From the NCBI RefSeq assembly GCF_035084215.1, contig NC_090352.1:38440001-38504000 (forward strand): a stretch of DNA of 64,000 nt. The letters are read 5' to 3'. Positions 3,901-62,232 of the stretch are shown here, piece by piece (the stretch's first letter is position 1; each line of letters starts with the position of its first letter). The notes beneath the pieces were generated by a model that saw nothing but the letters and a program-made list of their open reading frames with translations, was not told where the DNA came from and searched no databases. Both the position numbers and the translations under genes were made by a program. The stretch comes from Heptranchias perlo. Its lineage: Eukaryota.

Positions 3901-6900
3901 ACCCCATCGTTGGCCTCACCCCCCCACCCCGCATGTAGTGACCCCATCGTTGGCCTCACCCCCCCACCCCGCATGTAGTGACCCCATCGTTGGCCTCACC
4001 CCCCCACCCCGCATGTAGTGACCCCATCGTTGGTCTCGGCCCCCCCACCCCGCATGTAGTGACCCCATCGTTGGCCTTGGCCCCCCCACCCCGCATGTAG
4101 TGACCCCAGGCAGGGCGGAGTGAGCTCCTACCTTCACGTCCCGATGAACCACTCCAAAATCATGGAGGAAACCTGAAGACAAAATAGAGTCCGATATAAA
4201 CAGAGGCACCGCCGAGCCACACAAGAAAAAAAGACTTGCATTTCTATCGTGCTTTTCACGACCTCAGGACGTCCCGAAGCATTTTACAGCCAATGAGGTA
4301 CTTTTGAAGTGTGATAATGGAGGAAACGCAGCAGCCAATTTGCGCACAGCAAGATCCCACAAACAGCAAAGTGACAATCTGTTTTTAGTGCTGTTGGTTG
4401 AGGGATAAATATTAGCCAGGACTCTCCTGACGTGTTTCATTCCCTCAGTCGGTCACCTGCACTCAGGGGCCGGGGGAACAAGCACGGAAAAACCACAGCC
4501 CACCGGGGAGAACTCCCCTTCTCTTCTTCCAATAGTGGCCAGAGGATCTTTTACATCCACCTGAGGGGGCAGACGGGACCTCGGTTTAAAGTCTCCTCCG
4601 ATAGACGGCTCCTCCGACAGTGCAGCACTCCCTCGGTACTGCACTGGAGAGCGTCGGCCTGGATTGTGGGCTTGAGTCTCTGGAGCGGGGACTGTCGCAT
4701 CAAACGCCCCCCACCCCGCCCAACCTCCGACACCTGCGCACTCACCGATGGCGGAGCCCAGCTCGGCTGCAAACACTCGCACTCTGCCCTCGTCGAACGG
4801 CCCGCAGGCAGACCACAGCACGAAGAGGTCTCCGGAGCAGTGGTAATCGCACACTGCAGTCAGGAACACAGAACGAAAAGACAGTCACCGAGAGCGAGCA
4901 GGGGCAAGGGGGCAGACATTTTGGGAGCAGGACGGGGCTGAAATCTCACAGCAAGAAACTGCCCCTTCGTCCCTGTTTATATTTCGTAGTGGGTTGAAAG
5001 GTCAAAGCAGTGACCTTTCGTAGTGGGTTGAAAGGTCGGAGCAAGTGCAGGCTGCAAGATCAGCTGTAATTTTGGCCCCAGGCCCTGAAGATATTTCCTT
5101 GCTAAGATTTTGCAGAATGTTTCTCCCCCCCCCTCTCCCTCCCCTGAAGGTGCGCTCATTCTGGGTACAGCTCCCTGGGACCCGGGCTGCTTTCTGTACC
5201 TCGCCCAGTGACATCCCTGTGCTTGGTGATGGTGGTGGGTGCTATTTAACTATAGGGGGCATCGCAACCCCGCCCCGCCCCACCCTCTCCTCGCTCCGCA
5301 TCCACATTCCAGAAGGGGAGGGGTGGGGGGGTCACTGGGTATCGAACAGGAGCCCGACCCCTGGTCGATTTCCCCTCCCTAGCCCAGGGGCACTGAAGCC
5401 AATTGGAGGGCCCTAATCTACACAGAATTATAGAATGTACAGCACAGAAACAGGCCATTCGGCCCAACGGGTCTATGCCGGTGTTTATGCTCCACATGAG
5501 CCTCCCTCCCTCCCTCCTTCATCTCACCCTATCAGCATATCCTTCTATTCCTTTTCTCCCTCATGTGTTTATCCAGCTTCCCCTTAAATGCATAGATTTT
5601 GTGCTCAAGTGGGAATTGAACCCACAAACGAATGACTCAGAGGCGAGAGTGCGGCCCACTGAGCGCGGAGACAGGGAGGGTCGGGATCTTGCTGCTCTGT
5701 ACGGCTCATCTGTTCAGTAGATAATCCAGCTGAGTCAGGGATCGGGGACTTGGGGGGTGGGGGGGAATTACCTCATGAAAGATATTAAGACAGTGAGAAG
5801 AGCTCTCTCCCTGTGGGCAGGTGTCTGGCTGGTGAGGGTGGGAGAGGGAGCGAATAATCAATTGATCAGGAGTTCATCTCATCCTGTTTGTGACCGACCT
5901 CAATGATTCTAAAAAATCATCGTCCCAGAAAGTATTCATTCTGCTCAGTGCCAACTGGTGCCTGGCACTGGGGAGGGGGGGGTGAACGGGTACTGAGAGC
6001 GTGTGGCAGAGCTGATCAGCGCCAACCTGGCACTGGGGAGGGGGAGGGGTCTCAAATGGCATGAGGAAGAGAGATTAAATATTCCAACAGCCCCCCCACC
6101 CCGCCACAGATCCAGGGAGAATGGTCTGCGTCGACAACTGTGTAATCCCACCTTTTTTTTTTAAACTTCTAATTTATTTAACCCCGATTTGTGGCGAATC
6201 TGGACCAGGATTTTCTGCAGAAGCTCTCGCTGCTTCTTACAGAAGACAGGCTCCTACTTTGCAGAAGGATATACCGCAGTACCCAGTGCAAAGTGAGGGC
6301 TGGGGTTCTCCACTGACATTCCACACACCCACACACACAGACACAAAGGATAATTCCACCGCCCTCGTCACTGTGGATAAGCTTCAGTGCAGGGATTCTG
6401 AGTTCCTCCCCTCAAGAGCACCAAAAATAGGAGCGGGAGTCGGCCATTCGGCCCCTCGAGCCTGCTCCGCCGTTCAATAAAATCATGGCTGATCTTCGAC
6501 CTCAACTCCACTTTCCTGCCTAATCCCCATATCCCTTGATTACCCCAGAGTCCAAATCGATTCATCTCAGCCTTGAATATATTCAGTGTCTGAGCATCCA
6601 CAGCCCTCTGGGGTGGAGAATTCCAAAGAGTCACAACCCCCCCCGAGTGAAGAAATTTTTCCTCATCTCGGTCCTAAATGGCCGACCCTTTATCCTGAGA
6701 TTATGCCCCCTAGTTCTAGACCCTCCAGCTTTCTCACCTGTTGTCGCTGACTCTTACTGGGGATGGTGTCCTCTGGTTAATGACCCTCCAGCCAGTGGAA
6801 ACTGTTTCTCCTTATTTACTCTATCAAAACCCCTCATGATTTTGAACGCCTCAATTAAATCTCTCCTTAACCTTCTCTGCTCTAAGGAGAACAATCCCAG

Positions 6901-42074: not shown

Positions 42075-42274
42075 NNNNNNNNNNNNNNNNNNNNNNNNNN
42101 NNNNNNNNNNNNNNNNNNNNNNNNNNNNNNNNNNNNNNNNNNNNNNNNNNNNNNNNNNNNNNNNNNNNNNNNNNNNNNNNNNNNNNNNNNNNNNNNNNNN
42201 NNNNNNNNNNNNNNNNNNNNNNNNNNNNNNNNNNNNNNNNNNNNNNNNNNNNNNNNNNNNNNNNNNNNNNNNNN
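42075..42274. other. Assembly gap (200 N)
   Basis: Run of Ns. Confidence 1.
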
Positions 42275-42715: not shown

Positions 42716-42987
42716 ACAGTGGTGCTGATCCAGCTGTGGTCTGTTATTGTACGATCGGATTCCACGCCTCACAACTGGCACAGAAACTCCACAACTTTTT
42801 AGCCGGAGATCCCGGCCGGAATTTACACGGCTCATTGAAAGTTTACAACCTGGAGGGGGGGTTCCTGAAATGGGCCAAGGAGAGGAAGGCCATGGTTGAC
42901 AGCAGGAATCAGCCAACCAGCCTCGTCCACCCCTACAGCGAGCTCTGGGCTGAGCTCGTGAAAGCTGACTTCAAAGCCCCTGTGTGA
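42716..42987 (+). CDS. Rhodanese-domain protein, paralog A, terminal exon (upstream exons probably lost in the N-gaps)
   Basis: tacag|AC AGT...; VVCYCTIGFHAS (active-site Cys loop), KVYNLEGGFLKW (rhodanese C-terminal signature), LVHPY..W, TGA stop; 272 nt, the same length as the paralog B exon. Confidence 0.85.
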
Positions 42988-42992
42988 ATGTC

Positions 42993-43728
42993 CACTCTCC
43001 CGCCATTGGTCACCCAGCATGCCCACTCTCGTGGTGCCCCGCCCCCACTCTCCCGCCATTGGTCACCCAGCACGCCCACTCTCGTGGTGCCCCGCCCCCA
43101 CTCTCCCGCCATTGGTCACCCAGCATGCCCACTCTCGTGGTGCCCTGCCCCCACTCTCCCGCCATTGGTCACCCAACACGCACATTCTCGCGATGCCCCG
43201 CCCCCACTCTCCCGCCATTGGTCACCCAACACGCACATTCTCATGATGCCCCACCCCCACTCTCCCGCCATTGGTCACCCAACACGCCCATTCTCATGAT
43301 GCCCCACCCCCACTCCCGCCATTGGTCACCCAACACGCCCATTCTCATGGTGCCCCGCCCCCACTCTCCCGCCATTGGTCGCCCAACGCGTCCATCTTTG
43401 CGATGCCCCCCCCCCACTCTCCCGCCATTGGTCGCCAACATGCCCATTCTCATGGTGCCCCCCCCCCCCCACTCTCCCGCCATTGGTCGCCAACATGCCC
43501 ATTCTCATGGTGCCCCGCCCCCACTCTCCCGCCATTGGTCACCCAACACGCCCATTCTCATGGTGCCCCGCCCCCCACTCTCCCGCCATTGGTCGCCCAA
43601 CACGTCCGTCTTTGCAATGCCCCGCCCCCACTCTCCCGCCATTGGTCGCCCAACACGTCCGTCTTTGCGATGCCCCGCCCCCACTCTCCCGCCATTGGTC
43701 GCCCAACACGTCCGTCTTTGCGATGCCC
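42993..43728. repeat. ~55-bp minisatellite immediately after the rhodanese A stop codon
   Basis: About 13 copies of CCACTCTCCCGCCATTGGTCACCCAACACGCCCATTCTCATGGTGCCCCGCCC. Confidence 0.94.
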
Positions 43729-44809
43729 TGTCTTCCCACACCAAACGAACAGACTCTCTGTTACCCAATTGGATGATTCCTGACTGACCCTCAAACAGCT
43801 TTTTTCCCCCCCCCCCGATCTCCGATATTTTTATAACCAATGAACAGATAGGTTCAAAAAACATTTTGAAAAAACACACCATTTTGTTTAACGCCCCTGT
43901 GATTTCTCTCCCGGGTTGTTGCTCGCAGCAGTGACCTGGAGATCAATCTTCAATTCCTGGAGACTCCAGGCCAATCCGGGAGGGTTGGCAACTCCCTCTT
44001 CCCGGCAGACAGACCCAGGTTTGCTGGGAAGTTCTAATCCTTCGATAAATGGGAACGATTCGCTGGAACGGTGCATCCGCACAGGATCCGAATCTTAACC
44101 TGGATCATGAATGCATTCATCTGGACTTCAGCGCATGGAACTTTCTGGACGAATCCCGTTGACTCTTGTGCCGTGTGGAGTCTGTAGCGATGGGCTGACT
44201 CTCGGCCTGGCACGAGCAGGCTTGGCCGGCAAAATATATATCGATTTGTTCTTGGGGTGTGGGTGATGCTGACAAAGCCACATTCATTTATTGCCCATCT
44301 CTAGTTGCCCCGGAAGAGGATGAAGAGTTAGCCACGGACTGGAGTCACGTGGAGGCCGTGCCCCTCGAAAAGACATCAGTGAACCAACTTTTACCAACAA
44401 CCCATCAGCTTTCTCGGTGCCAGCCAAAACCACCAGATTTATCGGGTTCGATAATCACACCTTAACGTGGCGGGATTCGAACTCATGACCCCTGGGGTGA
44501 TGGTGTGCAGGACCAGAATCAAGAGCCCAACATAACTCTGATCGAAATGTTCCCGCAAGTCACTTCAAATTTTCAAAAATCAGGACTTTGAACTGTAATT
44601 GCGAGCTGGCCTTTTGTTCATTATTGGTTTATTAAATCTAATTCGCTCAGTGCGGTTGACTTGATTTCAGGGAATCTTTCCCTATAATATCGAGAAGCCC
44701 AGATTTAAGTCCGAAGGTCACGGTGCAGGAAGTACTGAGGCTGCGAGGGCTCGTGGAGAAGGAAGGAATGATTAGCTGACGTCAAACTTGAGATTTCAAA
44801 GTCTAGGTT

Positions 44810-45700
44810 GTCAGAAGGTCGTGGGTTCGAGCCCCCACTCCAGAGACTTGAGTTAATAATCCAGGCTCACACTCCCAGTGCAGTACTGAGGGAGTGCAGC
44901 ACAGTCGGAGGGTCAGTACTGAGGGAGCGCTGCGCTGTCGGAGGGCAGGACTGAGGGAGCGCTGCGCTGTCGGAGGGTCAGTACTGAGGGAGCGCTGCAC
45001 TGTCGGAGGGCAGGACTGAGGGAGCGCTGCGCTGTCGGAGGGTCAGTACTGAGGGAGCGCTGCATTGTCGGAGGGTCAGTACTGAGGGAGCGCTGCACTG
45101 TCGGAGGGTCAGTACTGAGGGAGCGCTGCACCGTCGGAGGGTCAGTACTGAGGGAGCGCTGCACCGTCGGAGGGTCAGTACTGAGGGAGCGCTGCACCGT
45201 CGGAGGGTCAGTACTGAGGGAGCGCTGCATTGTCGGAGGGTCAGTACTGAGGGAGCGCTGCACTGTCGGAGGGTCAGTACTGAGGGAACGCTGCACTGTC
45301 GGAGGGTCAGTACTGAGGGAGCGCTGCATTGTCGGAGGGTCAGTACTGAGGGAGCGCTGCACTGTCGGAAGGTCAGTACTGAGGGAGCGCTGCACTGTTG
45401 GAGGGGCTGCCCTTCGGATGAGACGTTAAACCGAGGCCCCGTCTGCCTCCTCAGGGGCATGTGAAAGATCCCACGGCCACTATTGGAAGAAGAGCAGGGG
45501 AGTTCTCCCAATGCCTTGGTCAATATTTATCCCTCAACTAACACCTGAAAACAGATTATCTGGTCCTTGTCACAGTGCTGTTTGTGGGATCTTGCTGTGC
45601 GCAAATCGACTGCCGTGTTTCCTACATCATAACAGTGACGACACATCAAAAAGTACTTCATTGGCTGTAACGTGTGTTGGGACGTCCTGCGATGAAAGGT
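44810..45700 (+). mobile_element. tRNA-headed SINE with an internal 31-bp tandem amplification (44880-45405)
   Basis: B-box GGTTCGAGCCC, array of CAGTACTGAGGGAGCGCTGCACTGTCGGAGGGT, then SINE body. Confidence 0.88.
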
Positions 45701-46096
45701 CCTTAATATCTCCTTTTCCGTTCACACCACTATCCGTGACAGAACCACAAATCCCAGGAACGTTGAGTAATCGGCAGTGTGTCAGCATGACAGTGAGGGG
45801 GCCAGTTAGAGTATTAATGGGAAGAATAAGGCCCCTTTAGTTTAACCATTGGACACGGGCCAGAACTCTCCCCTTGGAACATATTCTGAACACAGACCGA
45901 GGGCCCGTCTCTGTGGAATATTAAGGGATGTGTTCGCACGGCAGTCAACGACATGGCTCATGGCTGCCCGAACTGACCAGGTCATTTCCACATCAATGGT
46001 GAGTCTGGAGGAGGAACGACTCGCAGGTGTGGACCAGGGGAGGGGCACTGAGTCAGCTCGATACACCCCCCCGTCATCTGTGACAGCCAGGATCCC

Positions 46097-46240
46097 AGAG
46101 AGTGAGGGTGCAGAGAGTGAGGGTGCAGAGAGTGAGGGTGCAGAGAGTGAGGGTGCAGAGAGTGAGGGTGCAGAGAGTGAGGGTGCAGAGAGTGAGGGTG
46201 CAGAGAGTGAGGGTGCAGAGAGTGAGGGTGCAGAGAGTGA
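46097..46240. repeat. 15-bp repeat GAGAGTGAGGGTGCA
   Basis: About 10 perfect copies. Confidence 0.95.
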
Positions 46241-46479
46241 GGGGAGATCCTGGGGTGGAGTGTGGAGCTCTGTTCTGCTCTGGTTCCATTGCTTCTTTTT
46301 ACCCAATGTAGAGCCGAGGCCCAAAGTGCAGGAAACCCCGAGGTTGGAACGACCCGGGGGAGAGGATGAGGTGAATCAGGATTGAGTGAATGGGTGCCAC
46401 CACATCTGGATTTTAAAAGCCTAGAGGTTGGAGGAGGAAGGGAGGCCTGAGAGAGGGGACGGTCCTTCAAAAAACCAAA

Positions 46480-46965
46480 CCCGTACCCCAGTAAGAGTCA
46501 GTGTGTGTGGGACCCGTACCCCAGTGAGAGTCAGTGTCTGTGGGACCCGTACCCCAGTGAGAGTCAGTGTCTGTGGGACCCGTACCCCAGTGAGAGTCAG
46601 TGTCTGTGGGACCCGTACCCCAGTGAGAGTCAGTGTCTGTGGGACCCGTACCACAGTGAGAGTCAGTGTCTGTGGGACCCGTACCCCAGTGAGAGTCAGT
46701 GTCTGTGGGACCTGTACCCCAGTGAGAGTCAGTGTCTGTGGGACCCGTACCCCAGTGAGAGTCAGTGTCTGTGGGACCCGTACCCCAGTGAGAGTCAGTG
46801 TCTGTGGGACCCGTACCCCAGTGAGAGTCAGTGTCTGTGGGACCCGTACCCCAGTGAGAGTCAGTGTCTGTGGGACCCGTACCCCAGTGAGAGTCAGTGT
46901 CTGTGGGACCCGTACCCCAGTGAGAGTCAGTGTCTGTGGGACCCGTACCCCAGTGAGAGTCAGCA
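46480..46965. repeat. 33-bp minisatellite CCCGTACCCCAGTGAGAGTCAGTGTCTGTGGGA
   Basis: About 14 near-perfect copies. Confidence 0.96.
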
Positions 46966-47238
46966 CCTTGAGGAGGGGCGGAGAGAAGTTTAATAAAGGA
47001 CATAAGACAGATACAGGTTCCACACCGCACAGACTCGTCTTTCCAGATTCATTTATTTTCTACTGAGTCCCACCAGCAAAATGGAGGGGTGAGTGCTGCA
47101 ATCTCCAGCAGGATTCTCACGCTCTGAATTACAAATTCATCATCCCCTTTTGATTCCCCGATCCCTGGATTCGAACTTCCCAGCAAATCAGCTGCAGTTC
47201 AATCCGACGCATAAGAAGCAGCAGGACACGGTCTCCCC

Positions 47239-47510
47239 TCAGATAGGGGCCCTCAACCTGGGCTCCAGGAGCTGACCCCACACCGCGTTATAGGGGTGAA
47301 CCAGGCTTGTGGGCTGGTTCGTGCCGTCCACAATGGGCTTCCTCTCGTTGGCCCACTTCACCAGACCCCCCTCCAGGTTGTAAACCTTCAGCGACCCGTC
47401 CTGTTTCTGCCCGGGATCCCGCGTTAAAAAGTTGCTGAGATTCTGCGCCATTTCTGAGCCGTGATATCCAGCCGTACAGTAACAAACGACCGTCTTATCC
47501 TTCGAACAAT
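47239..47510 (-). CDS. Rhodanese paralog B exon 3
   Basis: DCSKDKTVVCYCTAGYHGSEMAQ...LRAPI*. Confidence 0.9.
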
Positions 47511-50500
47511 CTGCAACAGACAGCACCGTCAGAACAAGAAACCAGAATACTAACAAGATTAAAAGACCCCAGTCAATGTCCCAGGGTATTACAGACGGGG
47601 AGTCCAGTGAAGTGGGGTTAGAGGGCAAGGGGATAATTAGACCGGGGGCGACCGACGGAATTCAGTCCCTATTTTAAAGTCAAACATTCAGTCCTTATGT
47701 ATTTAGTTCACAAATCATTGAAGGTGGCAGGGCAGGTGGAGAAAGCGGTTAAAAAAGCATACGGGATCCTGGGCTTTATAAATAGAGGCATAGAGTACAA
47801 AAGCAAGGAAGTCATGATGAACCTTTATAAAACACTGGTTCTGCCACAACTGGAATATTGTGTCCAGTTCTGGGCACCGCACTTTAGGAAAGATGTGAAG
47901 GCCTTAGAGAGGGTGCAGAAGAGATTTACTAGAATGATTCCAGGGATGAGGGACTTCAGTTACGTGGATAGACTGGAAAAGCTGGGGTTGTTCTCCTTGG
48001 AACAGAGAAGGTTGAGAGGAGGTTTGATCAAGGTATTCAAAATCATGAAGGGTCTAGACAGAGTAGATAGAGAGAAACTGTTCCCATTGGCAGAAGGGTC
48101 AAGAACCAGAGGGCATAGATTTAAGGTGATTGGCAAAAGAACCAAAGGTGACATGAGGAAAAACTTTTTTACACAGCAAGTGGTTAGGATCTGGAATGCA
48201 CTGCCTGAGGGGGTGGTGGAGGCAGATTCAATCATGGCCTTCAAAAGGGAACTGGATAAGTACTTGAAAGTGAAAAATTTTCAGGGCTACGGGGATAGGG
48301 CGGGGGAATGGGACTAGTTGGATTGCTCTTCCATGGAGCCGGCGCGGACTAGATGGGCCGAATGGCCTCCTTCCGTGCTGTAATCTTTCTCTTTCTATAT
48401 GTTTCCTTTATAAATTCCTATGTCCACATTTATAATGGAAAAAGCCTATGTAAAATGTCACGCTGTAATTACACCCTCAAGCCAGTGGTGGTGCTGAAGT
48501 GCTTCCACTGAGGGAGGGGGAGGGTGTAATTGCACGTGAGATGTTTACATAGGAAGATTCCATTATAAATGTGACATAGGAATTTATGATGGTAAAAGTA
48601 GACAGGAATTGTGTGAAGGCCCAAGATTTTTAATGTGTTAAATACAGATGTGGAGCCATTGAACACCTGGATTTCACTGGGACCCGTTCACTGTCTGGGT
48701 TCATAACTGGCGCTGGACAGCAGTGAGTCCCATCGCTCATGGATTCACTGCCTCAGTCCCAAACATTGAATCATAGAATCATAGAAAAGTTACAGCACAG
48801 GAGGAGGCCATTCGACCCATCGAATCCATGCCGGCTCTATGCAAGAGCAATCCAGCTAGTCCCACTCCCCCGCCCTATCCCCGTAGCCCTGCAAATTTTT
48901 TCCTTTCAAGTACTTATCCAGTTCCCTTTTGAAGGCCATGATTGAATCTGCCTCCACCATCCCCTCGGGCAGTGCATTCCAGATCCCAACCACTGGATGT
49001 CCCAATTCAGATCTGCCCAGAGTCTGGGCTGTTTGTGACCCCCTCCCCCCGCCCCCAGAAGGGGTCAAGTGATTAACGAGAGCACGAGGGGAGTAGACTG
49101 TCCCTACCTGCCAGGCCCAGCTGCTTGACCACATGGTCCATGTTGGTGTTGTCTGGGTCAATGCGAACGGCTCCTTCCAGGTGACTGACCTCATATTCGG
49201 CCGGACTCCGAGCATCCTGGAACAACAGGGAGACATCGTGGTTTATGTTTCTTTGTGCACGAGGCCAGAATTGGAGGAGCGCAGAGATCTCGGAGGGTCG
49301 TAGGGCTGGAGGAGGTTACAGGGATAGGGAGGGGGCGAGGCCATGGAGGGATTTGAAAACAAGGATGAGAATTTTAAAATCGAGGTGTTCCCGGACCGGG
49401 AGCCGATGTCGGTCAGCGAGCACAGGGGGTGATGGGTGAACGGGACTCGGTGCGAGTCAGGATACGGGCAGCAGAGTTTTGGATGAGCTCAAGTTTACGG
49501 AGGGAGGCCGGGCAGGAGAGCATCGGAATAGCTGAGTCTGGAGGTGACCGTCTAAACTCGAGGGAACACAAGCCAGGGTTCACTCGATGATTACCGCCCC
49601 CACATTCCCACTGCCCGGGGCCCTCGGAAAAGGGGCCAAGTGAAGTCAGACCCCCCCCCCCTCCTCCCCCGCTCTGTCCGAGGGACTCTGGGCAACTTCA
49701 GTTAATCAGCAGAGGCCTGAAGCAGGGGCCTTTCCTGGCTCTGTTGGCCAGAGAATGGTTCACGATGTTGGGGGTAGAGACGAGCACTGATCCGAGGCCG
49801 TTGAATAACCCATGAAGCCTGGAAAGGCCCGGCTGAGGATCCCGGGGGTCGAGGACTGAAGGCCTTTGCCCCCCATCATTACCGGAGGGTTTAACCCATT
49901 TAAGATGAAGCAGTTAACCCTGCGTTAGACCAGCGGGTGAAGGGACGGGACGGGACGGGACGGGACGGCCTTCACCCACTCAGGGTTTGCCGCTGTTATC
50001 ACCAACGGCAACTTCAAGGCTTCAGTCTTTCACAATTAAATCCCAGAATTTCCCACTAGAATCAAAGTTCATTCCCCTGCCCCCTCCCCGTGTACAGATA
50101 CTCGGAGGGCGGTCTCTCCGGGGCTCCCAGGGCAGCCTTTGCTTTAATGTTTCTCCTCCCGTCTAACACCGACAACACGGGCCGCCCTCACAGCTCAGCA
50201 GGAAGCTCAGACCCCCATCTCTGGGCGATTCCACCCTTGGCCGAACAGCTGCTTCCCAATGACACCTCCCCCCCCAGAATGGCAGAGTCGGTCGGGAGTC
50301 ACTCACCACCAGCAGCACCCCCTCCCCCCCCCCCCCCAGAATGGCAGAGTCGGTCGGGAGTCACTCACCACCAGCAGCACCCCCTCCCCCCCCCCCCCCA
50401 GAATGGCAGAGTCGGTCGGGAGTCACTCACCACCAGCAGCACCCCCTCCCTCCCCCCCCCCCCCCAGAATGGCAGAGTCGGTCGGGAGTCACTCACCACC

Positions 50501-51786
50501 AGCAGCACCCCCCTCCCCCCCCCCCCCCCCAGAATGGCAGAGTCGGTCGGGAGTCACTCACCACCAGCAGCACCCCCTCCCTCCCCCCCCCCCAGAATGG
50601 CAGAGTCGGTCGGGAGTCACTCACCACCAGCAGCACCCCCTCCCCCCCCCCCCCAGAATGGCAGAGTCGGTCGGGAGTCACTCACCACCAGCAGCACCCC
50701 CTCCCCCCCCCCCCCCCCAGAATGGCAGAGTCGGTCGGGAGTCACTCACCACCAGCAGCACCCCCTCCCCCCCCCCCCCCCAGAATGGCAGAGTCGGTCG
50801 GGAGTCACTCACCACCAGCAGCACCCCCTCCCTCCCCCCCCCCCCCCCCAGAATGGCAGAGTCGGTCGGGAGTCACTCACCACCAGCAGCACCCCCTCCC
50901 CCCCCCCCCCCCCAGAATGGCAGAGTCGGTCGGGAGTCACTCACCACCAGCAGCACCCCCTCCCCCCCCCCCCCCCCAGAATGGCAGAGTCGGTCGGGAG
51001 TCACTCACCACCAGCAGCACCCCCTCCCCCCCCCCCCAGAATGGCAGAGTCGGTCGGGAGTCACTCACCACCAGCAGCACCCCCCTCCCCCCCCCCCCCA
51101 GAATGGCAGAGTCGGTCGGGAGTCACTCACCACCAGCAGCACCCCCTCCCCCCCCCCCCCCAGAATGGCAGAGTCGGTCGGGAGTCACTCACCACCAGCA
51201 GCACCCCCTCCCCCCCCCCCCCCAGAATGGCAGAGTCGGTCGGGAGTCACTCACCACCAGCAGCACCCCCTCCCCCCCCCCCCCAGAATGGCAGAGTCGG
51301 TCGGGAGTCACTCACCACCAGCAGCACCCCCTCCCGATTCTCCTTCACCAGCTGCTCCACCGCGTCTGAACAAACGTTCTCCACCGTGTGGAACCGCTGC
51401 CGGATCCACTCAGTTATCGGCTCCAACTCCCGGCCGGACACCGGCTCCGTCTCCCGGCCGGACACCGGCTCCGTCTCCCGGCCGGACACCGGCTCCGTCT
51501 CCCGGCCGGACACCGGCTCCGTCTCCCGGCCGGACACCGGCTCCGTCCCCCGGCCGGCCACCGGCTCCGTCTCCCGGCCGGCCACCGGCTCCGTCTCCCG
51601 GCCGGCCACCGGCTCCGTCTCCCGGCCGTTCACCGGCTCCATCTCCCGGCCGGACACCGGCTCCGTCTCCCGGCCGGCCACCGGCTCCGTCTCCCGGCCG
51701 TTCACCGGCTCCATCTCCCGGCCGGCCACCGGCTCCGTCTCCCGGCGGGACACCGGCTCCGTCTCCCGGCCGGCCACCGGCTCCAT
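47239..51786 (-). CDS. Rhodanese-domain protein, paralog B, 3 exons (51316-51786, 49108-49216, 47239-47510), about 283 aa including an N-terminal 8-aa repeat
   Basis: Spliced product reads ...ITEWIRQRFHTVENV...EGVLLV|DARSPAEYEVSHLEGAVRID...|...VVCYCTAGYHGS...VYNLEGGLVKWANE...VHPYNAVWGQLL. Phases are consistent; AATAAA on the minus strand at 47052-47057. The start codon is uncertain because several ATGs lie in the repeat. Confidence 0.88.
47695..48385 (+). mobile_element. CR1 LINE 3' fragment
   Basis: 206-aa C-terminal ORF2 frame ([11 protein letters not shown]...WNALPEGVV) plus tail; a similar inverted tail lies at 48770-48995. Confidence 0.92.
49108..49216 (-). CDS. Rhodanese paralog B exon 2
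   Basis: ccag|GAT GCT CGG...GCA G|gtagg; DARSPAEYEVSHLEGA matches the classic D-x-R...EY...H-x-x-GA rhodanese motif. Confidence 0.9.
50265..51335. repeat. ~60-bp minisatellite containing the exon-1 splice donor of rhodanese B
   Basis: About 17 copies of CAGAATGGCAGAGTCGGTCGGGAGTCACTCACCACCAGCAGCACCCCCT(C)n. Confidence 0.96.
51316..51786 (-). CDS. Rhodanese paralog B exon 1 (24-bp coding repeat plus domain start)
   Basis: Open frame (ETEPVSGR)n-ELEPITEWIRQRF...EGVLLV|gtgagt. Confidence 0.75.
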
Positions 51787-51795
51787 CTCCCGGTC
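51420..51795. repeat. 24-bp coding minisatellite (ETEPVSGR/EMEPVAGR)
   Basis: About 15 copies of CTCCCGGCCGGACACCGGCTCCGT with no indels. Confidence 0.95.
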
Positions 51796-56500: not shown

Positions 56501-56693
56501 TCACTTGCTGGACGCATTGTTCTGCTGTTGCTGCTCTGCCAGTGCCTGCTGCAGCCTCACCCGTTTCCTGGAATAATGTTGCCAGTGCAGCAGCTGCTGC
56601 TCGTCGATGAACTTGGCGCACTGGGCATTGACCAGCTCCTTGCGGAAATGCTCGTACTGGAGCAGCTCGAGCATGTGGAGGCACTGAGGGTAC
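56501..56693 (-). CDS. MED31: MED31 exon 4
   Basis: [20 protein letters not shown]...NNASSK*. Confidence 0.96.
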
Positions 56694-59600
56694 CTGCAGG
56701 AGAGAGAGAGAGAGAGTGAGTGAAAGTGTGAGCGAGAGCGAGCGGGAGAGCGAGCGGGAGAGCGAGCGGGGAGAGCGAGCGGGAGAGAGAGCGGGAGAGA
56801 GAGCGGGAGAGAGAGCGGGAGAGAGAGCGGGAGAGAGAGCGGGAGAGAGAGCGGGAGAGCGAGCGGGAGAGCGAGCGGGAGAGAGAGCGGGAGAGCGAGC
56901 GGGAGAGCGAGCGGGAGAGAGAGCGGGGAGAGCGAGCGGGAGAGAGAGCGGTGAGAGCGAGCGGGGAGAGCGAGCGGGAGAGCGAGCGGGAGGAGCGAGC
57001 GGGGAGAGAGAGCGGGAGAGAGAGCGGGAGAGAGAGATAGAGCGATGGGGGGGGGGAGGGAGAGCGATGGGGGGGGGGGGGGGGGAGGGAGAGCGATGGG
57101 GGGGGGGGGAGGGAGAGCGATGTGGGGGGGGGGGGGGAGCGATGGGGGGGGGGGGGGGAGCGATGGGGGGGGGGGGAGCGATGGGGGGGGGGGAGGGAGA
57201 GCGATGGGGGGGGGGGAGGGAGAGCGATGGGGGGGGGGAGGGAGAGCAATGGGGGGGGGGAGGGAGAGCAATGGGGGGGGGGGAGGGAGAGCAATGGGGG
57301 GGGGGGGGAGGGAGAGCGATGGGGGGGGGAGGGAGAGCGGGGGGGGGGAGCGGGGGGGGCGAGCGGGGGGCGTAGAGCGGGGGGGGGGTGAAGAGAGCGG
57401 GCGGGGGGGGGGGGGGGGAGAGCAGGGGGGGGGGGGGGAGAGCGCGGGGGGGGGGGGGGAGAGAGAGCGGGGGGGGGGGGGAGAGGAGAGAGCGGGGGGG
57501 GGGAGAGGAGAGAGAGCGGGGGGGGGGAGAGGAGAGAGCGGGGGGGGGGGGGCGGGGGAGAGCTGATGTGGAGCACTGGGGATACCTGTAGCAGAGAGGG
57601 GGAGTTCGAGCATGTGTTGGGGAGCGGAGAAAGAGCACGGGAGAGGGAGAGGGAGATCGCAGGAGAGTGAAAGCATGTGGGAGTGAATTTTTGAAGGAGA
57701 AAGGGAGTGTGAAAAGGAGGGAATGTGGCGGGAGAGAGTTGAGAGTGAGGGAATGTGGATGAGAGCGGAGGGGGAGGAAGGGAGGTAGAGCACGCCATGC
57801 CACATCACATAATTACAGGCGCTACTGAAAATAATTAACAAATGTCCACAGAGGGAAACAGCATTGTTGAGAACGGCCAAACAGCTTCTGCATAAAACTG
57901 ATTCACAGCAGCAATGAACAGTCGGCATTCTAAAATATTCAGGAGGGACAATGAGTGTGACAATGACCTTCGCCTCTGGGTCTGAGGAAAGCTCAAAGTC
58001 TCTCAGTCCCCTGACCGTGAGGGCCCTGTGTGGAATGAGGCCACGGTACAAAACCAGTCACAATTTGACAATCTCCCTCATTAGGAAATGCTGCACGGGA
58101 TGAACTCGAGGTCAGGGCTGAGGCACATTGTCAGAGTTTTACTCTGTATCTAACCCGTGCTGTACCTGCTCTGGGAGTGTTTGACGGGACAGTGTAGAGG
58201 GAGCTTTACTCTGTATCTAACCCGTGCTGTACCTGCCCTGGGAGTGTTTGACGGGACAGTGTAGAGGGAGCTTTACTCTGTATCTAACCCGTGCTGTACC
58301 TGCCCTGGGAGTGTTTGACGGGGCAGTGTAGAGGGAGCTTTACTCTGTATTTAACCCTGTACCTGCCCTGGGAATGTTTGATGGGACAGTGTAGAGGGAG
58401 CTTTACTCTGCATCTAACCCTGTACCTGCCCTGGGAGTGTTTGATGGGGACAGTGTAGAGGGAGCTTTACTCTGTATCTAACCCGTGCTGTACCTGCCCT
58501 GGGAGTGTTTGACGGGGCAGTGTAGAGGGAGCTTTACTCTGTATTTAACCCTGTACCTGCCCTGGGAATGTTTGATGGGACAGTGTAGAGGGAGCTTTAC
58601 TCTGTATCTAACCCGTGCTGTACCTGCCCTGGGAGTGTTTCATGGGACTGAATTGCAGAATTGCTTGAGGGGCTGAATGGCCTGTTCCTGTTTGAACGTT
58701 CCTAACCTTACTGACACTCGCAGTCACATACGAAGATGAGCAGTTGAGTGGCACACTGAATGCACCGGTGACGTTTTACCCCAGCAAAAGGGTGAGCATC
58801 GTCAGGAGGAGGGGAGAATATTGGGGGGCGGGGAGGAGGTATCCAGGGCCATGGGGTAATGATCTCGATTGGCAGAGGCTGGGGTGAAACACGGCATCGA
58901 TTCTCCTCCCACACGGGTCAGAGGCCAGGCACTTACTTCAGGTACTTGGCATATTCCGGCTCCTTCCAATACAGGAGGTACTTGAAATAATTGACAAATG
59001 TTCGGTCTCTGAAGTACCCACGCTGTGCCAGGACTGTGGGACAGGGAAAATAAAGAAAGCATTTGATTATACGCGGGTAGCAACAGTATCCGGGCATGAT
59101 AGATTGAGGATTCTTAACCGGGGCCCACCGCCGTAACCGGGGGCCCACCGCCGTAACCGGGGGCCCACCAAGGCGGGCCTACACCTTCCCACCCCACCCA
59201 GGGTCCATGTCTAGTTGTTTTATCATGGACTCTCTCCCTGCAAGACCGCGGTTATATTCCCGCTCTGCTCAGTGAAGCACAAGGGAGATACATTCCCGCT
59301 TATGGGTAAAATGGAGATCAGCAATTCCAACATCACTGCATCAAACAGCAGATTGATGATTCTCGGGGATGATCCTGGGGGTACTTACAGTTCAAGTAGT
59401 TTGGGTTCGCCAGACACTGAACGAACTCCAGCTCCATCTGGAAACGCAGCTTTGCCTGTTCCTCTGAACCCGGGGCGAAGGGGAGGGAGGGGGGTAAGAA
59501 AAAAAGGACAAATTTATTTTCTCATTATTTAAATTCGAATGCAGCGTGATACTTGTTGCTGTCGGCACAACTCTAAATGGGGGAGGATGGAGGAAATCAC

Positions 59601-62232
59601 AGCGCTGTAATCGCTGGCACTCAGACTGGAGCCTGGGTCAGTAACAAGTGGAGGAGAGAGAGGGTCGAGATGTGGAACAGCCTGTCCCGATTACCTCTGA
59701 ACCAATTCGGAGACACATAGGAAAATTCAGCCCCTCGAGCCTGTTCTGCCATTCAATTAGATCATGGCTGATCTGTTAGAACTTATAAAGAAACAACTTG
59801 CATTTCGATCACGCCTTTCACCACCTCAGGACGTCCCAAAGCGTGTTACAGCCAACGAGATACTTTTGAAGTGTAGATGCTGGTGTGATGTAGGAATCGT
59901 AGCAGCCAATTTCCTACATTACAACAGTGACTACACCTCAAAACTACTTCATTGACAGTGATGCACTCTGGAATGTCCTGAAAGGCGCTATATAAATGCA
60001 AGTTCTTTCTTCAGGGAATATACACCGCGTTTTCCTATAAATTGGCCTCAGATTTGTCCTGTTTCCCCCCATTCCTATGAGTTAGAAGTTGAGGTGGCTG
60101 TGGTCCGTTCTCCTCTTTCTATTCTACATTCATCTACTGCATGTTGGAGCCACCAGCTCACTTTCTCTCTTTCCCCTTCGATCCCTTCTCTCCAGTGAGT
60201 GACAGTGCCGGGATTGAGGAGTTTCAGCAGGGCAGTGTACTATGGGTAAGTGATACCACCACAGGATGACAAAGCAGTCCAACCGACGCTGAGAGAGCGT
60301 CACAACTCCTTCCACGGATGCATTCTGAGAGTTCCTCTTGTTTGCCTAGCTCTGTGACTAATTTAACCCACTGTGGGATTTGATCATATGGAGAAAGACG
60401 ACTCCTGCCCTTGAACAGTCCCACCTCTCTCCTGCACTCAAACACCTTACTGGGCTCGTTCTGTGCCCCGGCCGGGCGAACAGACCAGGAGGGCCCCAGT
60501 TAGAAAAGATAGAAAGAACTTGCATCTATAGATTGCAGTTGGCAAAACTGTAGGGCTAATTTCCTCCTACACTTTCCCACCCCACCCAGGGTCCATGTCT
60601 GGTTATTCCATTATGGAGTCTCCCCATCAGTCCCTCTCCTGTTGGTGTTCAGAGGGATTTAGGTGTCCTTGTACACAAAGTACAGAAAGTTAGTATGCAG
60701 GTACAGCAAGCAATTAGGAAGGCAAATAAGCATGTTGGCCTTTATTGCAAGAGGGTTGGAGTACAAGAGTAAGGAAGTCTTACTACAATTGTACAGGGCT
60801 TTGGAGAGACCTCACCTGGAGTACTATGTATAGTTTTGGTCTCCTTATCTAAGGAAGGATATACTTGCCTTAGAGGGGGTGCAATGAAGGTTCACTAGAT
60901 TGATTCCTGGGATGAGAGGGTTGTCCTATGAGGAAAGATTGAGTAGAACGGGCCGATACTCTCTGGAGTTTAGAAGAATGAGAGGTGATCTCATTGAAAA
61001 ATATAAGATTTTGAGGGAGCTTCACAGGGTAGATGCTGAGAGGCTGTTTCCCCCGGCTGGAGAGTCCAGAACTAGGGGGCATAGTCTCAGAATAAGGGGT
61101 CGGCCATTTAGGACTGAGATAAGGAGAATTTCTTCACTTAGAGGGTTGTGAATCTTTGGAATTCTCTACCCCAGAGGGCTGTGAATGCTGTGTCGTTGAA
61201 TATATTCAAGGCTGAGATCGATAGTTTTTTGGACTCTAGGGGAATTACAGGATACGGGGGATCAGGTGGGAAAGTGGAGTTGAGGTCAAAGATCAGCCAT
61301 GATCTGATTGACCATATGGCCTACTCCTGCTCCTATTTCTTATGTTCTTATCTGGCACCTTTCACAAGCTCAGGATGTCCCAAAGCACTTTACAGCCAAT
61401 TTAGTATTTTTGAAGTGTAGTCACTTCACTTGTAATGCAGGAAACGCAGCAGCCAATGTGTGTACAGCAAGGTCCCACAAACAGCAACGTGATAATGAGC
61501 AGATAATCTGTTTTTAGTGGTGTTGGTTGAGGGATCAATATAGACCCAAGACACTGGGGAGAAACTCCCCCCTGCTCTTCTTCAAACTAGTGCAGTGGGA
61601 TCTTTTACGTCCACCTGAGGAGGGCAGACGTCTGCTTAACGTCTCATCCGAAAGATGGCATCTCTGACAGTGCAGCGCTCCCTCGGTACTGGCACAGGGA
61701 GGGTCGGCCTGGATTACGGGGGCTCAAGACTCGGGAGTGGGGGCTCGAACCCACGGCCTTCTGACTCCGAGGCGAGAGTGCGACCCACCGCGCCACGGCT
61801 GGCACCAGTCGGCTGAGGCAGAGGCCTCATATGGGTCTTAAAGTCCCAGGTTAGAGAAGGGGAAAGCAGCCAGGGGTTCCCTCTCCTGGGAACCCTCTGG
61901 TGGTGAGTGTTTGTGTGTGGGGATGTCAGGTGAAGGCAGGATCAGGCTCAGGTGTGGTGCCTTCCACTGCCTGGGCTCACATATAAAGAACAGCCCCTGG
62001 ATGGGGGAAGGTTATCAGAGGGTCGCCAGGGCCAATGGAACCTGTACCCCAGCCACTCAGCACCCCTTCCCCACATCCAGTACCAAGGCTAAAACAGCTG
62101 CAAGGTCCTCACTTCCGCCCCGCTGTTGCCCCGCGACCCCAATTTCCGCCCCGCACCAGGTCACGTGACCAGCCTAACTTCCGCCCCCTTCCCGTTACCT
62201 GTCTCGGCGCCGCCGGTTGGGGCCGCCGCCAT
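56501..62232 (-). CDS. MED31: Mediator subunit 31, complete 4-exon gene of 132 aa. Exons: 62199-62232, 59389-59463, 58937-59033, 56501-56693
   Basis: [132 protein letters not shown]; 399 nt in phase. Confidence 0.97.
56700..57560. repeat. GA-rich and poly-G low-complexity arrays in MED31 intron 3
   Basis: (GAGAGCGGGA)n followed by (GAGAGCGAT(G)n)n. Confidence 0.93.
58138..58648. repeat. Dispersed 65-bp satellite
   Basis: About 8 copies of the unit seen in the VTN introns. Confidence 0.92.
58937..59033 (-). CDS. MED31: MED31 exon 3
   Basis: [33 protein letters not shown]. Confidence 0.96.
59389..59463 (-). CDS. MED31: MED31 exon 2
   Basis: [25 protein letters not shown]. Confidence 0.96.
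60650..61350 (+). mobile_element. CR1 LINE 3' fragment
   Basis: [13 protein letters not shown]...RMRGDLIE; WNSLPQRAV. Confidence 0.88.
61355..61805 (-). mobile_element. tRNA-headed SINE
   Basis: Reverse-strand head (GGTTCGAGCCC) and SINE body. Confidence 0.78.

Follow-up and report, generated by a model that had tools for sequence, protein, structure and literature searches.

We wondered which genes occupy the interval between a gene with hemopexin repeats, which we take to be VTN, and MED31 in the sharpnose sevengill shark Heptranchias perlo. The window analyzed is a stretch of 64,000 nucleotides (NC_090352.1, positions 38,440,001 to 38,504,000 of the forward strand). An earlier note made from its letters had proposed a convergent pair of intron-containing, bacterial-type single-domain rhodanese genes (here copies A and B) forming an undescribed vertebrate family, either ancient and patchily lost or horizontally acquired. 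Copies A and B do stand tail-to-tail, but they belong to a trio whose third member, copy C, lies past MED31. With moderate confidence we read the three copies as spliced paralogues within one single-domain rhodanese-fold subfamily. This subfamily likely descends vertically from the ancestor that animals share with choanoflagellates, and its three shark members are predicted cytosolic sulfurtransferases.

The last exons of A and B both measure 272 nt and follow a phase-1 acceptor, exactly as had been described (Table 1). They share 52 of 89 residues, close to the earlier hand count of about 53 of 90, and 193 of 272 nucleotides. Pfam Rhodanese (PF00581) matched exon 3 alone with 25.3 bits for B and 23.0 bits for A (curated cut-off 22.2). 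Copy B has three exons, GT-AG introns and an open frame of 283 aa, and its spliced product is identical to P0001, an uncharacterised database protein of H. perlo. Intron 1 of the shark genes is in phase 0, just before the Asp of the DxR motif, and intron 2 is in phase 1, before exon 3. The active-site Cys codon of B (47478-47476) opens the loop C-T-A-G-Y-H, and an AATAAA motif is found at 47052-47057. Both frames had been called intact; this holds for B, but exon 3 is the only part of A that is visible (Cys codon 42748-42750, loop C-T-I-G-F-H). Exons 1 and 2 of A were found neither in the window nor in 60 kb of flanks nor in the whole genome, where each of these exons matches two places, namely B and C. 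Because the genome has just two copies of each, a run of 200 N that precedes A exon 3 by ~440 bp, and is likewise N in the genome copy, is the likely location of A exons 1 and 2. When the genome was searched with exon 3, a third match came up besides A and B, namely copy C, with exons of 111, 109 and 272 nt, a product of 163 aa identical to database protein P0004 and the loop C-T-V-G-Y-R. The gene order is VTN>, A>, <B, <MED31, C>. The proposed setting between VTN and MED31 agrees with Pfam hemopexin (VTN-type) and Med31 matches in the flanking exons, with a family match for 4 of the 8 exons queried.

Table 1. Features of the rhodanese locus of H. perlo, in window positions.
Feature	Position	Strand	Remarks
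200-N run	42075-42274		
Copy A exon 3	42716-42987	+	last coding exon; 272 nt including stop; phase-1 AG acceptor; Pfam Rhodanese match
Copy B exon 3	47239-47510	-	272 nt including stop; phase-1 AG acceptor; Pfam Rhodanese match
Copy B exon 2	49108-49216	-	109 nt; carries DxR and H..GA motifs
62-bp tandem array	50268-51335	-	17 copies of the B intron-1 donor; variable G runs
Copy B exon 1	51316-51786	-	16 units of a 24-bp repeat, then 37 conserved codons
MED31	56502-62232	-	Pfam Med31 on two exons; ATG at 62232; between B and C
Copy C	68786-73811	+	G000:C31:38508786-38513811 (L004:4786-9811); starts ~4.8 kb beyond the right end of the window

Splicing was assessed on contigs from four runs of one sample, which we guessed to be RNA. 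Contigs of all four runs join 47510 to 49108, precisely at the predicted 1597-nt GT-AG intron of copy B, in line with the claim that the genes contain introns. A loose end at the exon-2 acceptor was reproduced letter for letter as a mix of the exon-1 ends of B and C (agreement 0.87; computed 0.867). This consensus indicates that the first of the 17 intron-1 donor copies of B is in use, and only this one (exon end 51316) was seen joined to exon 2. A contig with A exon 3 was also present in all four runs; it opens with the end of an exon 2 that matches B and C letter for letter. As these contigs join an exon-2 end to A exon 3, copy A is likely a transcribed and spliced gene.

The same junctions allow another reading, namely that A lacks exons 1 and 2 altogether and that B uses A exon 3 as an alternative last exon, by way of a locally mis-oriented assembly or of trans-splicing. 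The two genomic copies of exons 1 and 2 would fit, as would the identity of the joined exon-2 end with B and C, the finding that just two exon-1 variants join exon 2, and the identical A and B exon-1 peptides of three species. Against this, the N run sits upstream of A exon 3 and no N run separates A from B. A and B are separate loci in other species, and exon 1 or exon 2 differs between them in Hemitrygon, Heterodontus and Callorhinchus; near-identity of exon 2 is moreover shared by the physically separate B and C. We regard an A exon without a gene of its own as quite unlikely and treat A as a spliced paralogue in its own right.

The start-codon region of copy B is amplified, with 16 units of 24 bp at 51426-51793 (-). 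Units at 51786, 51714 and 51642 carry ATG, and the unit that aligns to the initiating Met of the orthologues reads TTG (51426), so translation would start at one of the three ATG units. The predicted N-terminus would thereby carry 72-120 extra repeat residues, which were not seen in the B proteins of other species.

To which rhodaneses do the three proteins belong? A profile of the shark proteins matched a bacterial subfamily with an E value of 7e-54 over 145 columns, and the best PDB sequence match to copy C had an E value of 2.5e-6. The label "bacterial-type" is thus apt in that no solved rhodanese is as close to the shark proteins as bacterial ones are, but the family is also widespread in animals. 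Automatic annotation points elsewhere: members carry names such as 'tRNA uridine(34) hydroxylase-like', 'MOCS3-like' and 'MoeZ-like' (P0005, P0143, P0147 and others), which would make A, B and C ordinary orthologues of TrhO/TSTD2 or of the MOCS3 rhodanese domain, and TSTD1 has the same fold and the same single-domain architecture. Six scanned members nevertheless score far below the TrhO/MOCS3-type models despite their names. TrhO, MoeB and GlpE models gave 24-40 bits against cut-offs of 102-647; for TrhO/TSTD2 the values were 35.6-39.8 bits against 170, with a single domain of 163 aa that lacks the catalytic partner domain. Human TSTD1 was not among the 58 PDB sequences matched by the shark profile (E up to 10), and its structural alignment to a model of copy C reached Z 11.2 at 18% identity (rank 22 by Z). 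The strong match to the bacterial subfamily likewise counts against ordinary TSTD orthology, which we consider scarcely credible. Model scores, profile search and structural alignment together led us to reject membership in TSTD1, TrhO, MOCS3 and Cdc25, and they support the earlier placement of the predicted proteins in a single-domain rhodanese subfamily distinct from TSTD1, MOCS3 and CDC25.

The set of active vertebrate rhodaneses is usually drawn from humans. It comprises eight active proteins there, with TSTD1 as the sole single-domain one (PMC10135228). We found no description of the present subfamily, nor any link between rhodaneses and sharks, in the literature searched, which did not cover subscription journals. 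In this respect the family is undescribed, as the earlier note had it, but it is not restricted to vertebrates and already stands in databases under uninformative or misleading names. The trio is real and likely expressed, and it belongs to an animal rhodanese subfamily that is undescribed yet already annotated in databases.

The fold agrees with this placement. An AlphaFold2 model of copy C (26 sequences) reached a predicted local distance difference test score (pLDDT) of 94.4 and adopts the alpha/beta rhodanese fold. A fold search with this model listed 50 entries of Z 8.4-14.2 with rhodanese-fold proteins on top, none exceeding 28% identity. A Leishmania As/Sb reductase (Z 14.2, root-mean-square deviation 2.4, 122 aligned) shared the top rank with a thiosulfate sulfurtransferase. 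By the loop rule given in PMC10135228, sulfurtransferases have Cys-x4-R/T, and Cys-x5-R is the mark of phosphatases or arsenate reductases. Copy C carries D38-x-R40 and C85-T-V-G-Y-R90, that is the DxR motif and the Cys-x4-Arg loop of single-domain (class 1) sulfurtransferases. Copies A and B have His at Cys+5 in place of the loop-end Arg or Thr, the A copies of two other species have Tyr or Gln, and the Cys itself is retained in all. At Cys+6 the three copies have Ser, Gly or Ala, so none has the seven-residue Cys-x5-Arg loop of Cdc25 phosphatases and arsenate reductases. Among 334 full-length family proteins, Arg occupies Cys+5 in 308 and another residue in 21 (5 were not parsed). Twenty of these 21 are named A or B copies of cartilaginous fishes and one is a skate-like sequence; in this set, the His-loop change is seen in cartilaginous fishes only.

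What might the altered loop mean for function? Yeast RDL2 and DUF442 require the loop-end Arg at Cys+5 to form persulfide from thiosulfate, and RDL2 R111I loses ~90% of its activity, as reported in PMC8533005. Judged by such motif rules, A, B and C are best read as predicted cytosolic persulfide-forming sulfurtransferases with diverged specificity; the cytosolic location is suggested by the absence of the hydrophobic N-terminal leader that many bacterial relatives possess. In the standard two-step transfer, the loop cysteine would first be loaded with sulfane sulfur by a donor, forming a persulfide, and would then pass the sulfur to a thiol or to cyanide. Copy C, with the presumably ancestral Cys-x4-Arg loop, may use thiosulfate or polysulfide as donor. 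The Cys-x4-His loops of A and B likely alter their substrates and may have shifted them from thiosulfate to other donors or acceptors, for example glutathione or protein persulfides. The shark copies are small and probably soluble, and the residue needed for thiosulfate use occurs naturally among them as Arg and as His, which makes them well suited to testing how specificity depends on the loop.

We compared the copies exon by exon. Between B and C of H. perlo, exon 2 is identical at 105 of 109 nt, and the identity extends into both intron flanks; exon 1 agrees at 73 of 111 nt and exon 3 at 220 of 272 nt. The same pattern appeared among 28 proteins from 12 species with at least two copies, a set from which most partial models and all single-copy species were omitted. 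For exon 2, the nearest peptide came from a paralogue of the same species in 25 of 28 cases; for exon 3, it came from an orthologue in all 27. Exon 1 of A and B was 100, 100, 81 and 100% identical in four species. For A against B, exon 3 gave a ratio of nonsynonymous to synonymous rates (dN/dS) of 0.26 (bootstrap range 0.12-0.46), well away from 1; exon-3 values overall were 0.20-0.43. The three copy types occur in chimaera, sharks and rays alike, and the loop-bearing exon 3 stays copy-specific from chimaera to sharks. The earlier proposal of an old duplication held by purifying selection is supported. The homogenised exons 1 and 2 are likely due to gene conversion between the inverted copies, with the DNA-level comparison confined to the H. 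perlo genome: conversion would equalise exon 2 among A, B and C and exon 1 between A and B within a species, while selection would hold the loop-bearing exon 3 distinct. The cluster would then be a clean case of exon-by-exon concerted evolution beside a selected, unconverted exon.

We next address the range and origin of the family. Among the best 120 of 985 matches of the shark profile, A-, B- and C-type proteins from across sharks, rays and chimaera were followed by proteins of palaeognath birds, turtles, a crocodile, squamates and coelacanth, and further down by cnidarians, molluscs, a nemertean, a sponge, a brachiopod, a crustacean, the choanoflagellate Salpingoeca and bacteria. Looking up 30 proteins by name extended the range to a caecilian, amphioxus, a hemichordate, echinoderms, annelids, an acoel, a flatworm and a hydrozoan. 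In Callorhinchus, one contig carries three gene products of the rhodanese family under separate names. The ESM Atlas returned a 327-member eukaryote cluster (most commonly Chordata) and a Chlorophyta-rich cluster, which we take as leads only. Presence in these groups means that this is not a vertebrate family. Teleosts, frogs, mammals, neognath birds, lamprey and fungi did not appear among the named matches (the best 120 or 150, plus the 30 look-ups), which does not amount to absence. The gene has likely been lost in humans and perhaps in further vertebrate lines.

Trees were built from 334 of 352 proteins with FastTree, after 18 partial or multi-repeat sequences had been dropped, and from chosen subsets; some 'bacterial' entries were classed by their position in the tree. 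FastTree placed the vertebrates (99) among animal and protist sequences. Under LG+C20, 45 proteins gave animals at 94 and animals plus Salpingoeca (Holozoa) at 98, and 48 proteins gave Holozoa at 93. With LG+G4 and 64 proteins, vertebrates were united at 99/95. Approximately unbiased (AU) tests on the 64-protein set did not reject Holozoa (p 0.245), vertebrates plus amphioxus (0.245) or vertebrates plus deuterostomes (0.187). Vertical descent with losses is the simplest account and very probably correct. Of the two origins put forward earlier, the ancient, patchily lost family is thus the favoured one; an older transfer into the holozoan stem may have preceded it.

The other origin, a transfer from a bacterium into jawed vertebrates, separate from the invertebrate genes and followed by intron gain and duplication, draws on the shark proteins being ~35-45% identical to bacterial and invertebrate members alike and on the lack of a lamprey or tunicate record among the named matches. 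It also draws on the LG+G4 tree, which puts a long-branch Filomicrobium protein (P0216, branch 1.1) sister to vertebrates (96/82) and makes the invertebrates a separate clade (81/94). However, P0216 has the second-longest end branch and leaves the vertebrates under LG+C20 and FastTree, so that vertebrates fall with animals in three tree analyses and beside one bacterial long branch in LG+G4. Since site-heterogeneous trees show one holozoan clade, which the AU test does not reject, and since sponges, cnidarians, protostomes, echinoderms, amphioxus and the choanoflagellate carry the gene and group with vertebrates, a vertebrate-specific transfer is very unlikely. The hemichordate carries the gene as well. 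Two mollusc models also break just before the DxR motif, the site of shark intron 1, which is weak and indirect evidence. The trio represents no new mechanism, and gene transfer into vertebrates is improbable.

The two LG+G4 groupings also weigh against our reading of three vertically inherited, spliced sulfurtransferase genes, as do the following points. No tree unites vertebrates with amphioxus, and a clade that is not rejected is not thereby demonstrated; the LG+C20 trees were short searches without bootstrap, and the alignments comprise merely 159-176 columns. A word-based search did not list the caecilian orthologue that HMMER found, which leaves losses outside humans uncertain. The four runs stem from one sample of presumed RNA and may underlie the database models, hence they are not independent of them. 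Exon 2 of the chimaera is not homogenised (61-72%), B/C exon 1 has a dN/dS of 0.8 (37 codons), and exon borders in other species were assumed from the alignment. The sources searched hold no solved structure or measured activity for any member of the subfamily, and the prediction of function therefore rests on motif rules.

The bacterial relatives raise the question of arsenic chemistry. The best NCBIfam match of the shark proteins was NF045521 (rhoda_near_glyco), with 100.4 bits for C (E 7e-29) and 88.3 bits for B, below the cut-off of 145. We surveyed 201 genomes of one bacterial phylum and found 15 loci over this cut-off. Neighbours were identified by a model scan of 34 of 59 neighbouring open reading frames plus one more and by tblastn over all loci. 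Eight of the 15 have ArsS, the TIGR04282 arsenosugar glycosyltransferase or an arsenosugar ArsM within 1.5 kb. Several genomes (L102-L116) place the NF045521 rhodanese between ArsS, the TIGR04282 glycosyltransferase, TIGR04169 and a purine-nucleoside phosphorylase. In the literature searched, no paper on a role of NF045521 rhodaneses in arsenosugar clusters was found.

Sharks and marine invertebrates contain high levels of arsenic. These observations would fit a subfamily that acts on arsenic or selenium compounds, by thiolating oxo-arsenicals or arsenosugars or by reducing arsenate, and that was retained and expanded in cartilaginous fishes to deal with dietary arsenic; the tied top structural match to the Leishmania As/Sb reductase would agree. 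However, the shark proteins fall short of the NF045521 cut-off, and the arsenosugar-linked proteins form a separate clade (100) that scores 63-79 bits against C, with three other members reaching 86-106 bits in the same search. The nearer bacterial group was represented by 80 loci (mean 10.5 kb); none of them has ArsS, TIGR04282 or TIGR04169, and one has an ArsM-like match. The shark loop also lacks the Cys-x5-Arg of Cdc25-type arsenate reductases, and the gene is retained in land reptiles and ratites as well. Nor did the best 80 of at least 594 bacterial loci show a conserved neighbourhood; the largest neighbour clusters covered at most 12 of 80 loci, antisense frames aside. Given the separate clade and the 80 nearer loci, we regard arsenic as a lead, unlikely as an explanation of the family, and keep to the sulfurtransferase prediction. 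Slightly less likely still is the full combination in which the His loops of A and B carry out a chemistry new for rhodaneses, perhaps the thiolation or the reduction of arsenic compounds from the diet, within a trio that predates the chimaera-shark split, belongs to a subfamily humans lack, shares its scaffold exons by conversion and keeps three fixed active-site forms.

Several neighbouring genes were also noted. The VTN-type exon at 30526-30976 (+) carries a long Pro/Glu-rich repeat (units 6-66 bp) ahead of the first hemopexin repeat. Kinase-like exon frames with an HRDVK motif lie at ~4150-4900 (-); Pfam returned no match on the two short exons, and they presumably resemble RSKR/SGK494, which we take to be a neighbour of VTN in human. 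In human, the thioredoxin-like TXNDC17 is a neighbour of MED31. A TXNDC17-like gene stands on the contig of MED31 (G000:C31:22455780-22459526) but at a distance of 16 Mb, and linkage to the trio was rejected. The H. perlo genome further holds a gene on another contig (C43) that we take, from its translated exons, to be TST/MPST-like. A Pfam search of the genome gave five other rhodanese-domain matches, among them neither the A/B/C cluster nor TSTD1 or TSTD3; as it missed the cluster, it says nothing on which TSTD genes the shark has.

The subfamily adds an ancient member to the vertebrate rhodanese set, kept by sharks, coelacanth, caecilian, reptiles and ratites under wrong automatic names. 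How does it compare with known systems? Human TSTD1 and yeast RDL1 and RDL2 resemble copy C in having one rhodanese domain, the DxR motif and a Cys loop of six residues closed by Arg, and no targeting sequence was seen in them or in the shark copies. RDL1 (3d1p) is the best PDB sequence match of the shark family. Identity in structural alignment is nevertheless 15-18%, and the shark family has an additional N-terminal helix and a C-terminal VHPY..W..LL tail, with loops ending in His in A and B. TSTD1 has four exons (PMC10135228), whereas the shark genes have three. NF045521 proteins share with this subfamily the YCxxGYRS loop, NLxG..F/L.W.N and the H.Y...W tail, but the sharks (88-100 bits) remain under their cut-off and in a separate clade. 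Many bacterial members carry an N-terminal hydrophobic leader and some lie in arsenosugar clusters, whereas the nearer bacterial group lies outside such clusters. Cdc25-type proteins (CDC25A/B, the Leishmania As/Sb reductase and yeast Ygr203w) have the rhodanese fold of copy C (Z 12-14) at 12-17% identity, yet their loop is the seven-residue Cys-x5-Arg, as opposed to six residues with Arg or His at Cys+5 in the sharks. TST and MPST, finally, have two domains where A, B and C have one, and persulfide chemistry would be common to both.

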